Shown: positions 6,967-27,395 of the stretch, piece after piece
Position numbering within the stretch: the first letter of the stretch is position 1
Layout of the letters: each line of letters opens with the position of its first letter
Source: Haliotis cracherodii
Lineage: Eukaryota
NCBI RefSeq assembly: GCF_022045235.1
Contig: NW_027266343.1
Span: 43,152,001-43,216,000, forward strand
Length of the DNA: 64,000 nucleotides
Direction of reading: 5' to 3'
Translations under genes and position numbers: made by a program
Notes under the pieces: generated by a model
What the model saw: the letters and a program-made list of their open reading frames with translations, nothing else
Told to the model about the DNA's origin: nothing
The model's database searches: none

Positions 6967-7797
6967 ATGAGTGGTTTAGTCTATGGGATCCTCCTGTTTT
7001 GGGCTGCATTGTGCGGTAGGTTGATTGTAGACGGTATATATTGTAGTATTTTCAAAACACTTTGCTGTTGCTTGTTGTAAGTTGAACTTAGTGCATTTTA
7101 GAGATTACCCCAACAGTTCGTTTAAGTGTTCTATAATACTTCAATCAATGTTGAAACGCACGTATATGTTCGCTTTAACTATTTGGCTGTTTCTTTCGTT
7201 TTTTTGTTAACTCCAATTTAACCAAGATTTCCGGTACTTACTTACATTGAAACAATAATGTCATGTCACCAAACTTTAGATCCAGTTAAGATTCCGGGTT
7301 TGAATTTGTCCCCAGCAACTTATGGGTAGTAAGGCTCGGTGACTGTTGATTCCGAGAGCTTCGTACATTGCTTATAATATCATCAGAGGATGATTATGTA
7401 CAGGCCGCCGTCTTGTAGCTGGAATATTGATTGGCACGGCATTAAACAATAGACAAACCAAATTATATAAGCACTTTCGGCTAACCATCCACACATGCTC
7501 TTGTGCAATGTTTGCATCATATGAGCTAATAGTAACGTGCATGAATTTAAAACGTCAACCAGCAATGCATTTTAAAATAATTACATAAACACGGACTGAT
7601 GAATACGAATACCTCCTTTTACGAGTGAGTGGGTGAGTGAGTATGGTTTTATGTCGCTTTTAGCAATATACCATCAATATCACGGCAGGGGACCCCATGA
7701 ATGTGCTTCACACATTATACCCAAGTAGGGAATCGAACACGGGCATTCGGCGTGACGAGTCGTCGCTTTATCCACTAGGCTACCCCAAGGCACCACA

Positions 7798-7838
<41 letters not shown>

Positions 7839-23168: not shown

Positions 23169-26100
23169 CACACAGTACACATGCAACACACACAAGGTAC
23201 ACACAGCACACACACACACACACACAAACACACGAATAAAACATAACAAACAGCACACAGTGCATATACACACAGACACATACACAACACAACGTACAAA
23301 CACACTGAACACACAGAATACTCGCGACAGACACACACACACGCACACGCACGCACGCACACACACACGGAACACACGGAACACACACCGCACACACAAC
23401 TCACACACCACATACACACAGCACACACACAACACACAGTACACATGCAACACACACAAGGTACACACAACAAACAGCACACACACACACACACACACAA
23501 ACACACGAATAAAACATAACAAACAGCACACAGTGCATATACACACAGACACATACACAACACAACGTACAAACACACTGAACACACAGAATACTCGCGA
23601 CAGACACACACACACACACACGCACACGCATACACACAAAACACACACGCACGCACATACAACACAATATACACAGCACACACACAAACACACGCACAAC
23701 ACACAAACACACACAACAAGCACAACGCACACATAAAACACAGAGCACATAAAAACACAACCATCACACAAACACACACAACACACACACCTCTTCTCCA
23801 TACAAACACCAACGCACACTTCTTCACACACATCGCACCTTTCCTTCCTTCTCCACACACATAGGACAGCATCCCGGCTCTGTCCTCCACCCCGTCAGTC
23901 TTCACGTGACCCTCACAGTCCGGTAGTCGGTTGTACACACAGCTCAGGCTTCTTTGGGCCTTCCTGTTAAATACAAACAGTACACACGTAAATCAGTCGA
24001 TGACTGTTTTCTATCGACACCAAAAAGTGAAAACAGGTACTTATGTCCTCATCATACACCATACCTGCAGAATTTCTTCACAGCAGACTGTGGGTCACTG
24101 AAGTCTTCAGGGCTCTTGGATTCGATCATGGGAACCTGCAGGTGAGATATGGCTGTAGCGCACCTGAGGAATCTCTTGTGGTGACAGCGGTTGTCATGGG
24201 AACCCAATACTTGACCTGTTAGAATATATGGGCATGTCATCAGTGTATGGATTCAAGCAATAGGTTCAATATTATGATGACTTTTCTTGACCGACCTTTG
24301 GGTATTCTAGGGGCTTGAGATATTTTGGAAAAAATATGTTCTTGAAGAAAACAATGGCCAAAAAATCATTTGTTCTCTGGTTTTACTAAAAGACGAATAC
24401 ACATTATTTGCTGGATATGCTAGATGTTTTGTAAGATGTGAAATTGAGCATCATGACGAATTTTGGACCGACCATTGGATATTCCTGGGGCCTGGGATGT
24501 TTTGTTAAGGACAATTTGTTAACAAAATAACTGGCAAAAAATCATTTGTAGTAGAAAGTGTTCCTTTTACATTTGTCGGCCCCTCCTTTTCATAGAACAT
24601 ATATTTGTGTTTTGAAGTAATGAAAGAATTCCTGGCTCTAAACAAAAGCTCGCGCACCCCGTGTAGGGCACGAAGACCATGTCGACATACTCCAACGTCG
24701 TTTCTTCATTCTCCAGTGATTGGCTGAATGGGTCACGTGTCAGTTGTTAGGGAAGTTGTACTTGGGGTGGCATTTTCTCGGTCAGTCCTTGAAGATCACC
24801 TGGGGGAACATGTTTCCTGGGGCAGCGCTGCCAAGCAGCATGGTGATTTCACGTTTGTCCTCAACACCTGTTACGTTTTACTTCGCGCCTTTACTCGCTC
24901 GTGTCCAATTGGAAACGGGTACGATTTTAACATCAGTTTGGTCAAAGTTAATGACCAAGTCAGATGGGATCGAATTCGACGCAACTCTCCCCCCACACTT
25001 TTCAAAGTCAGCTGGTATTTTCCTAGCAGCTTTTTAAGCTTTCCTTTCACCAAATAGGTACCTGATGAGGAAGGAATATGATCACGTCTTATTAAGTAGG
25101 ATGGGGCCACCATTTTCAGCAAGAAGGAATCTGTTTTCGTGCAACACAATGTCACTTACAGTAGCGATTACAATATGCCAGTTTATAATTCTACCAGCTG
25201 CACTGATTTCAGACAAATGGTCGTACTCAAGTTTGTCCAACTCACCCCACAACAATGGTCGACCATTATGAGTAACTTCGGTCACCTCAGCTAGTGTGTC
25301 TGCAGATTTACATTAGCATAAGCCTTCTTCATTACACAGACAACACTCTCCCCCAGACCAACATCTAAAAGTTTACTGAAATGTTTTGCAGCTCGAGCAA
25401 TTTTAACACGAGTTGGAAGCGAGTAGTTGTTATTGGTCCTTTTCTCTTGACACCACGTCGACTAATCGTAAAATCATCTGAACGTGATGCGTCTAGGATT
25501 GTCTTGTTTACTTTTTCCATCCTGACAGACTCTCAGGGGTCGATGCCTTGGCTGGACCAGACTAGACTAGACGAGACCAGACGAGACGAGACCAGACCAG
25601 ACCAGACCAGACCAGACCAGACCAGACCAGACCAGACCAGACCAGACCAGACCAGGCCAGGCCAGGCCAGGCCAGGCCAGGCCAGGGAGCCTCTTGGTGG
25701 CCGTGACGTACAATGTACTTTAAAAGGATTGTGAATACCAGTACTATTAAGTCATGTTATTTATATTCCAACACTGGAGACAAAACATTTAACTTGAGTT
25801 GGTTCGATTATTTATTTCCTTTGAACTTCCTCAATGCCAGTCAACAGTGCGGGGAGTCCCATTCATACCGAGTCGCATTTTTTGGCTAGGGGACAGCAGT
25901 CGCATTCATTAGGATTGGAGACACATTCATTTCCAGATTTACAGTAGTTGTTTGGAGAATGAAAGGACTATTCCTCTATTCCTTATGTCGTTAAGTGCAC
26001 ACAGTCAACATAGTGGTGGTGATGCGGTGCATAGTGTTAGGTCCCTTGAGTGTAGTTGTGTGAAGGCATTGATCTTGTTATATGAGACTAATTATTCATT

Positions 26101-27395
26101 AGCATGTAATCATACCTTTATTAACTATCACGTTACATCATTACATCCAATTGTACTAACGTTACCGTCCGTCTGTCGTTAGTTCGACACCACCCAGTGA
26201 ATGATCGGGCTATCATTGGCAGGTCATTAAGGACAAACATGGGTACAAACACAACACTAGAACGCTTCAGAACGGTCATGTTTTCAGACAGGAACACGGA
26301 TCACTGGTCAGTGTGTGGCCGGGGTCCTGTTCGACTGACGATGTCGTCAAGGTTCTGCAGTGTTACCTTACGGGTCTTCTCTATACATCGCCAGTAGGAT
26401 GTCTCGTTTCATGTCTCCGTTTATTTCAGAACGTGTATCCTCTATAAGTTCGATGTCCATCGACTTATAGGTTAAGCTTGTCTGAAGTTGCTTATTCACT
26501 ATAATGACATGTTCTCATGTTCTATGGCTTTAATAGATAACAATAAGCTAGTGACAACATTTACTTAGATTGTAATCTTATTTCCGTAAACTTCATCTCA
26601 CTTAGATCTTAGAACTCTGTTTAAATTTATATATCTCCTAAATAATGGAGAAGAGAAATGCCGACAAAGTCATAAGTTCGTTGGGTATATCGCCAACCGA
26701 TTTTTTAATCTCTTCTAATCCCTTCACATTTGCGACAGTTATGCTCGATATATACTTGGCTTTTCGACAGTTCGGTATGAAACATAGCAACATTGCAATT
26801 TAGTCCTCATATATAAATTATTTCCGACATTTCGGCCATGAACCGTTTGATGGTTGCTAAAAGTGAATGAAACAAGAAATAGTTATTCGATGGCGATGTA
26901 AATGATACAGGTATTATAGTTGTGTTTCGGGCCTAATGTTTGCAGTGTTTCGGCTGTAACGTTTGGATAAAGTTTGGGGTCAAATCCAGTCTTTAAGTGC
27001 CTACTTTCTATTGCCAGGCAGTTTAGCCAATAGCAGTTTAGCTGAATTTGATTCCGTTCTGAAAAGGCATTGATTAGATTTATCTTTGAACAGTTCACCT
27101 TTATTCACCCAAACAGAACCACTTAATTTCATTGGAATGAGAAAGATCGACATAATAACAGTGTTTTGAGTAGGCGCCGTTGGTTTAAATATAATTTATC
27201 GAAATTGAAATATCACACAGTTGCTTATTGGAATTATATATAATAACACACATAATTGTGCAATAACTTATCACGATATGAACGCTCCCATGTACTTCAA
27301 CACAATTAGCACACGAAGTAAACATTAAAGTTTGATATACGCGACTTACCCAAACAAGTGAACCACGCAACGGACAGAATGATGCACGGCTTCAT
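19580..27395 (-). CDS. Gene B: secreted 12-Cys protein (DUF19/T20D4.11-like architecture), 195 aa. Exons 27395-27350, 24215-24065, 23963-23839, 21267-21129, 19706-19580
   Basis: GT-AG introns, phases 1-2-1-2, 588 nt open. Protein MKPCIILSVAWFTCLGQVLGSHDNRCHHKRFLRCATAISHLQVPMIESKSPEDFSDPQSAVKKFCRKAQRSLSCVYNRLPDCEGHVKTDGVEDRAGMLSYVCGEGRKDLIAGSSCWLNNNVASRIRHCKAKHDIDNIATRVHDGNITDTYAYCGSLDNFVWACMGDWTIKRCPYNLSAFIIRALNPERLSAQLKC. An in-frame upstream ATG at 27407 is possible; AATAAA on the minus strand near 19060-19070. Confidence 0.88.
19735..19965. repeat. Degenerate ~30-35-bp tandem repeat next to the gene B exon 5 acceptor
   Basis: Recurring ACGACAATCACGACTATT. Confidence 0.75.
19967..20128. 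mobile_element. MITE-like element with terminal inverted repeats
   Basis: TATGGAATACTG ... CAGTATTCCATA; internal inverted TCTCGCGATCTCG motifs. Confidence 0.65.
20741..20998 (-). mobile_element. SINE-like family 4, full copy with ~14-15-bp TSD
   Basis: GGCAGGCATCTATT on both flanks (20727-20740 and 20999-21012). Confidence 0.88.
21856..22227 (-). mobile_element. SINE family 3 spanning the assembly gap at 21899-22028
   Basis: Both ends match family 3; TSD CAGGTCACA(C/A)TGA. Confidence 0.8.
22527..22903 (+). mobile_element. Non-autonomous Penelope-like terminal element with ~43-bp inverted termini and a minimal hammerhead motif
   Basis: GGAAGAGAATTTATGGATGTCAACTTCTGTATTATGAGGACA pairs with TGTTCCTCATAATAAAGAAGTAGACATCCTTAAATTATCTTCC. 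Confidence 0.65.
22823..22862 (+). ncRNA. Degenerate type I minimal hammerhead ribozyme (C3-to-A variant)
   Basis: CAC-aTGATGA-A-GGAGTA-agcata-TACTCC-GAAAC-GTT-GTG: stem I CAC/GTG, 6-bp stem II, palindromic AACGTT stem III. Confidence 0.6.
23117..23832. repeat. CA-rich microsatellite/low-complexity tract with an internal ~200-bp duplication (gene B intron 3)
   Basis: (CA)n runs; 23160-23345 repeated at about 23425-23615. Confidence 0.92.
24660..25520 (-). mobile_element. pogo/Tigger-like DDE transposase relic in gene B intron 1
   Basis: Frameshifted motifs GRPLLWGELD, INWHIVIA, LLAENGGPILLNKT, KAARKIPADFE, LVINFDQT, GVEDKREIT, CHPKYNFP, HSANHW. Confidence 0.8.
25556..25686. repeat. (CCAGA)n grading into (CCAGG)n pentanucleotide microsatellite
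   Basis: Direct reading. Confidence 0.95.

Follow-up and report, generated by a model that had tools for sequence, protein, structure and literature searches.

What do two diverged, cysteine-rich genes lying tail to tail in an abalone genome encode, and what might their products do? The pair sits in a window of 64,000 nucleotides from Haliotis cracherodii (assembly GCF_022045235.1, contig NW_027266343.1, positions 43,152,001 to 43,216,000 of the forward strand). The window is the whole stretch of DNA that was analysed, and positions are counted from its first letter. The genes, here called A and B, are real, paralogous and spliced. The preferred reading, held at a probability of roughly 0.42, is that they encode likely secreted proteins, anchor-less and built of two helical bundles, which would bind an extracellular protein and act as a paracrine signal.

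Gene Models and Transcripts

Gene A is rebuilt from the window as six exons on the + strand (6967-15433; 212 amino acids), with intron phases 1-2-1-2-1, and gene B as five exons on the - strand (27407-19580; 199 amino acids), with phases 1-2-1-2. All nine introns have GT-AG borders. The 3' ends face each other about 3.5 kilobases (kb) apart. The exons are as follows.

6967..7015, + strand: A exon 1, ATG and hydrophobic N-terminus (putative signal peptide, from hydropathy)
11437..11602, + strand: A exon 2, probable short propeptide with Arg-Arg at its end, then Cys1-Cys3 of module 1
12510..12631, + strand: A exon 3, Cys4-Cys6 of module 1
14118..14232, + strand: A exon 4, linker and Cys7-Cys9; contigs of all four runs join it to exon 5
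14477..14631, + strand: A exon 5, Cys10-Cys12, with the segment best conserved among orthologs
15402..15433, + strand: coding part of A exon 6, amphipathic basic tail after an R-x-x-R site; AATAAA at 15542
27350..27407, - strand: B exon 1, ATG at 27407 and hydrophobic N-terminus
24065..24215, - strand: B exon 2, Cys1-Cys3
23839..23963, - strand: B exon 3, Cys4-Cys6
21129..21267, - strand: B exon 4, linker and Cys7-Cys9
19580..19706, - strand: coding part of B exon 5, Cys10-Cys12 with the stop directly after Cys12; AATAAA at 19070 (- strand)

An earlier note on this DNA had described two complete spliced genes, each with a hydrophobic N-terminal exon and 12 cysteines in the mature part. Both descriptions hold. 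The rebuilt proteins are identical to RefSeq XP_071090821.1 (A) and XP_071090336.1 (B), each an ‘uncharacterized protein’ of H. cracherodii; A has 13 cysteines, 12 of them downstream of the hydrophobic N-terminus, and B has 14, with 12 in the mature part. The short motifs attributed to the pair, C|R-x7-C-x7-C, Y-x-C-x-EG and CW, are found in both proteins. The proposed phases 1-2-1-2 are right for B and for the first four introns of A, which has a fifth, and the start proposed for B at 27395 is replaced by the RefSeq ATG 12 nucleotides earlier. The genes had also been called hidden, which they are not, because RefSeq models already match them letter for letter; a query with a single exon of either gene recovers the full-length identical RefSeq protein.

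Splicing was checked in contigs from four sequencing runs of three studies, which are presumed to derive from RNA and were retrieved using gene B. The check covered three of the nine junctions (introns 4 and 5 of A and the intron between exons 4 and 5 of B), and all three are spliced. Introns 4 and 5 of A are skipped at GT..AG in contigs of all four runs, and exons 4 and 5 of B are contiguous within one contig in three of the four. Past exon 4 the contigs reach up to 336 letters in A, and 334 and 377 in B, consistent with the modelled upstream exons (337 coding bases in A, 334 in B). Both genes are present in all four runs.

That A and B are paralogs is seen in their identity of 23.6% across 110 amino acids (E 8e-7). 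The local score of 79 is matched by none of 1000 free shuffles and by none of 1000 shuffles with the cysteines held fixed. Three intron sites are common to the two genes, one codon after Cys3, six after Cys6 and one after Cys9.

Protein Architecture

AlphaFold2 models of A and B (predicted local distance difference test scores of 83 and 82) contain helices only, with about three helices per six-cysteine module; the tail of A is modelled as a separate helix at low confidence. The predicted fold of both proteins is thus all-helical, each module presumably holds three disulfides, and export would proceed via the signal peptide. All-helical models, six cysteines per module and likely secretion would also suit proteins that carry small hydrophobic ligands, in the manner of odorant-binding proteins. 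Such a role is highly improbable: no carrier family occurs in the Pfam matches of 110 proteins or in the Protein Data Bank (PDB) profile matches, and an up-down three-helix bundle should have little space for a pocket.

The two modules match each other (hhalign 79.8%, E 1.5e-5), and in both A and B a phase-2 intron lies one codon past Cys3 and one codon past Cys9. Because the modules are alike and are split at the same codon, the two-module domain arose by duplication of a two-exon unit flanked by phase-1 introns. With such boundaries, fusions of the kind seen in mosaic proteins would be easier. The 12-cysteine unit occurs in mosaics with Frizzled, EGF, Ly6/Quiver or C-type lectin domains (P0009, P0026, P0073, P0076, P0079, P0100), which are consistent with exon shuffling.

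Gene A encodes Arg-Arg ahead of the domain and R-x-x-R ahead of the amphipathic basic tail, whose hydrophobic moment is 0.98; this arrangement is kept in four orthologs and has parallels in further gastropod homologs, one of them labelled Ag. By the general rules of convertase cleavage at basic sites, these look like the convertase sites of a regulated secretory product. Protein A terminates 17 residues after Cys12 and B at Cys12 itself, and neither has a hydrophobic C-terminal anchor.

Family Membership

A profile of eight abalone proteins, searched at E<=1e-3 among 1.84 billion sequences, returned 106 representatives, 104 of them new. At least one full unit is present in 102 of the 104, and two or three units in 11. 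With this breadth, and with RefSeq models in four abalones, the earlier proposal of an undescribed system is not supported. An alignment of 78 rows was made from 70 of the 104 representatives and the 8 abalone proteins, leaving aside 34 that were long, multi-domain or partial; across it, 10 cysteines are invariant and 2 are conserved at >=90%. Pfam matches among these rows at E<=0.05 are CPG4 (51), DUF19 (31), DUF1397 (26), RGM_N (14) and NRN1 (12), and 6 of 110 proteins exceed the DUF19 cut-off.

A and B themselves pass no Pfam cut-off. For DUF19 (PF01579, cut-off 23.2 bits) neither gives a match even at E<=10, and six abalone orthologs give none at E<=0.001. Against CPG4 (PF15481, cut-off 32.7 bits) B scores 15.5 bits (E 0.025) and the best ortholog 29.8, all below the cut-off, and against DUF1397 (PF07165, cut-off 25.7 bits) A scores 16.7 bits (E 0.005), also below it and the sole Pfam match of A. 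Neither protein matches NRN1 (PF15056). The Pfam check proposed earlier therefore yields weak matches below every cut-off and assigns neither protein with confidence to a functionally characterised family.

When the abalone rows are left out of the profile, A scores 120 bits, B 88 and P0118, a homolog labelled ‘Ag precursor’, 116, though the remaining rows were originally found using A and B, so that the scores are not fully independent. In Atlas searches with A and B, unnamed arthropod clusters rank first and DUF19/CPG4 clusters next, at 0.90-0.94 over both kinds and 0.90-0.93 for the DUF19/CPG4 clusters. Names were checked for ten of the 104 homologs, eight of them from gastropods and the other two unnamed; several carry UniRef ‘DUF19 domain-containing’ names, and one Biomphalaria cluster has ‘Ag precursor’ members. 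By a rough rule, the C-terminal ends of the 78 rows are glycosylphosphatidylinositol (GPI)-like in 26, transmembrane in 9, a basic tail like that of A in 15, short like that of B in 10 and of other kinds in 18.

Since the family representatives match DUF19, CPG4 and DUF1397 while A and B pass no cut-off, the pair belongs to this wide animal group without formal membership of PF01579. The DUF19-like architecture ascribed to the pair is supported by the family (DUF19-named homologs, matching rows, neighbouring Atlas clusters); A and B themselves do not match the Pfam DUF19 model. The likeness consists of 12 cysteines in two modules behind a signal peptide, predicted in A and B from the hydrophobic N-terminus, and of homologs that pass the DUF19 cut-off or bear DUF19 names, with DUF19 clusters among the nearest in the Atlas. 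The differences are the basic amphipathic tail of A, the stop of B at Cys12, and gene number: the abalone has a pair, whereas C. elegans has 51 to over 80 DUF19 genes (PMC3534327, PMC8410859).

Orthologs, Linkage and Copy Number

Both genes have orthologs in H. rufescens, H. rubra and H. asinina, and across the four abalones identity is 67-95% for A and 74-96% for B. Among the coding differences listed, at least eight, five are synonymous and three non-synonymous. A quick tree of 38 rows makes A and B sisters with weak support (80.8) and gives their stems 3.9 changes per column for B and 0.9 for A; a tree of 78 rows does not settle the placement of either. Because the stem of B is so much longer than that of A in the smaller tree, the distance between them is old and lopsided, lying on the old stem branch of B. 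The pair had been called fast-diverging, and ongoing rapid evolution is not shown by these figures.

Abalone gamete proteins are known for extreme divergence, of which A and B bear no sign in their ortholog identities or in the ratio of listed synonymous to non-synonymous changes. This makes it distinctly unlikely that they are disulfide-stabilised pheromones released into the water or secretions of the reproductive tract, and no pheromone label was found among the 10 of 104 homologs looked up. The attraction of such a role is that A and B are small, soluble and disulfide-rich, that A has prohormone-like basic sites, and that pheromones of Aplysia and Sepia are disulfide-rich secreted proteins (PMC3484142).

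The linkage of A and B is likely conserved in all four abalones, since the longest contig is equal for the A and B ortholog records in each species and the H. asinina orthologs have consecutive accessions. Mature A is acidic in every ortholog (isoelectric point 4.7-5.2) and mature B basic (8.6-8.8). Linkage, opposite charge and presence in the same four runs would fit a secreted heterodimer with A as its acidic and B as its basic subunit, a pairing that would keep the genes linked and is compatible with the preferred reading of a paracrine signal. It is improbable all the same: paralogs in tandem need not bind each other to remain linked, tail-to-tail genes have no common promoter, and the even number of cysteines leaves none free for a bridge.

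The pair had further been placed in a locally clustered family. Exon profiles were scanned across the window and 100 kb on either side (264 kb in all), with reversed DNA as a control, and recovered A, B and a broken partial copy of B, nothing further. The locus is a pair with a dead fragment and no cluster. This bears on a role in defence, in which A and B would be soluble stress and defence proteins of haemolymph or mucus, like the insect 27 kDa haemolymph protein (DUF1397) and the infection-induced nematode DUF19 proteins. DUF1397 is matched by A and by a third of the aligned rows (26 of 78), both genes are present in every run examined (runs retrieved using B), and infection raises 14 of 51 C. 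elegans DUF19 genes (PMC3534327). Unlike the worm clusters, the abalone genes show no local expansion within the 264 kb and keep stable one-to-one orthologs in four species, and the cited portions of the literature show no activity for any family member. A defence role is thus somewhat unlikely.

Relationship to the RGM N-Domain and Neuritin

A search of 177,635 PDB sequences with the 78-row profile (E<=10) returned six sequences, five of which are N-domains of RGMA or RGMB (E 0.02-0.61), aligned across five cysteines of module 2. In the abalone genome itself, the N-domain of the true RGM gene (G000:C1:79994281-79994481) ranks first among 464 frames by both module profiles. The module 2 profile scores 17.6 bits against it, as high as none of 1000 shuffles with fixed cysteines. 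The reciprocal search finds RGM_N in 14 of the 78 rows and NRN1 in 12, with a best E of 2.6e-5 (E<=0.05). The RGM N-domain is a three-helix, three-disulfide bundle (PMC7354924), and the family unit probably shares ancestry with it and with neuritin, to judge from profile comparison.

Several results count against this kinship. The best PDB-level E value, 0.02, is sub-threshold, hhalign to the single abalone RGM N-domain gives 26.8%, and an abalone-only profile has no match in the PDB. For module 1 the score is 14.0 bits, reached by 11 of 1000 shuffles, and the shuffles of either module keep no control for helical periodicity. Searches of open-access full text found no published link between the unit of this family and the RGM N-domain or neuritin.

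The likeness to the RGM N-domain (PF06535; RGMA, RGMB, hemojuvelin) comprises a six-cysteine unit predicted to form three helices, the five aligned cysteines of module 2 and weak reciprocal matches. A and B differ in that their unit is doubled in tandem and in lacking the neogenin-binding C-domain of RGM, a GPI-like end and the RGD/RGN-Leu-His motif. The likeness to neuritin (CPG15) lies in the family rows that match NRN1, and the pair differs from it in having two modules, no anchor and no NRN1 match of its own. Neuritin is a small extracellular protein, GPI-anchored or released, that is tied to AMPA receptors (PMC6502786).

The RGM N-domain contacts BMP2 and GDF5 through Gly101, Leu103 and His106 of the alpha2-alpha3 loop and alpha3 (PMC7354924). 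Could A and B be soluble decoys for BMP or TGF-beta ligands, using an RGM-type binding face? RGM N-domains are the top PDB matches, the genome has BMP2/4, and module 2 of B carries Leu at +4 and an aromatic residue at +7 after Cys11 in all four orthologs. BMP signalling sets body length in worms. Overexpression of worm T20D4.11 gives a body 8.2% shorter, in one line (PMC8410859), a phenotype that may be plain toxicity. The Gly+2/Leu+4 pair after the fifth cysteine, which RGM needs (PMC7354924), occurs jointly in none of the 78 rows in either module by an ungapped count. Protein A has neither the Gly, the Leu nor the His of the RGM loop; module 2 of B has the Leu and a Phe, with Tyr in place of Gly. 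The abalone also has a true RGM elsewhere in its genome, with Gly-Asp-Ile in the loop and Tyr at the His position. A decoy role is very improbable by these residues, and the partner of A and B is probably not a BMP.

Proposed Function

In the preferred reading, A and B would be exported by a signal peptide as anchor-less proteins, each folding into two six-cysteine, three-helix bundles. Convertases would cut A at two sites, behind Arg-Arg near the N-terminus and behind R-x-x-R near the C-terminus; A may be stored in granules, where the amphipathic basic tail would serve as a granule-sorting or membrane-binding piece. The binding face may lie in module 2, on its loop and final helix. As with the likely distant relatives RGM and neuritin, the partner would be a protein outside the cell, for instance a surface receptor, and the role would be paracrine, perhaps in nervous tissue like that of the Aplysia glial protein Ag.

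Two lines of evidence bear on the binding partner and face. The ends of 35 of 78 rows are GPI-like or transmembrane by the rough rule, which points to work at the cell surface. Among the four A orthologs this loop and helix form the most invariant segment (19 of 24 non-cysteine sites), and because they are the counterpart of the segment through which the RGM N-domain binds, this was counted in favour of the proposed face.

The comparison with Ag concerns tissue and processing. Ag is a protein that glia of Aplysia secrete (Lockhart, Levitan, Pikielny 1996, cited in PMC11193209 and PMC7040184), and the ‘Ag precursor’ label of the Biomphalaria homolog P0118 probably derives from it. P0118 has the 12-cysteine layout of A, an N-terminal Lys-Arg and a C-terminal R-x-x-R with a basic tail; it matches the abalone profile at 91% in hhalign with about 21% identity.

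Other observations speak against a paracrine signal of this kind. P0118 was found at E 9.6e-4, outside the 17 best matches of A, and neither the 38-row nor the 78-row tree joins A to the Ag-labelled homolog. Invariance in A is much the same in the signal, propeptide and tail (0.75-0.78) as in the proposed face; in B the module 2 loop and helix are invariant at 16 of 22 sites, and the linker and preceding helix score higher. The response of C. elegans DUF19 genes to infection and stress (PMC3534327, PMC8410859) fits a defence role as well. Further sources are PMC13234300, PMC6878950, PMC10058639, PMC12606440, PMC5685644, PMC2115992 and bioRxiv 10.1101/2023.06.22.546160.

A bolder version would treat the invertebrate DUF19/CPG4/DUF1397 proteins at large as tandem RGM-N/neuritin bundles. 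A and B would then be convertase-processed, Ag-like soluble signals, possibly an acidic and basic heterodimer, which glia or glands would release to adjust the activity of a receptor on neurons or of a TGF-beta-family ligand. As a whole this is unlikely.

Neighbourhood of the Pair

The broken copy of B found in the local scan, called B-prime and absent from the earlier note, carries a repeat insertion in exon 2, an inverted-repeat insertion in exon 3, deletions of 8 and 12 nucleotides, a stop and a lost donor.

45612-46280, - strand: B-prime, partial copy of B exons 2-3 and the intervening intron, about 79-83% DNA identity

The window also contains a degenerate multi-kilobase duplication (35131-40088 and 51244-59936), whose pieces are 76-96% alike and interrupted by short repeats. 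Remnants of Tc1/mariner-type transposases (DDE_3, HTH_Tnp_Tc3_2) lie at 42293-42790 and 62069-62945. A piece at 8071-8737 resembles, by eye, a non-LTR (long terminal repeat) reverse-transcriptase remnant and has no Pfam match. Long minisatellites occupy 5134-6552 (71 bp units), 9545-11324 (51), 13221-14122 (55), 14650-15251 (18), 17919-18431 (28), 30782-34771 (43/125) and 38636-39902 (104). Three of the seven lie within introns of A, two of these ending close to an exon, and the long open frames inside the window's minisatellites are repeat artefacts. Outside the window, at G000:C12:80168931-80246829, a single-frame gene of TGF-beta-family type recurs in at least 17 closely similar copies about 4.2 kb apart, together with one inverted copy; this may be a real amplification or an assembly artefact.

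Significance

As genes, A and B are ordinary: they are annotated, kept across abalones and part of a wide family of unknown function. The useful lead is a family unit related, as it appears, to the RGM N-domain and neuritin. Should that link hold, it would name a surface to mutate and a kind of partner for DUF19, DUF1397 and Ag-type proteins, and the low-copy abalone pair would be simpler to test than the redundant worm clusters. If the bolder reading of tandem bundles and Ag-like signals were true, hundreds of invertebrate proteins without a function would gain a fold and a binding face, along with an initial class of partners to test.

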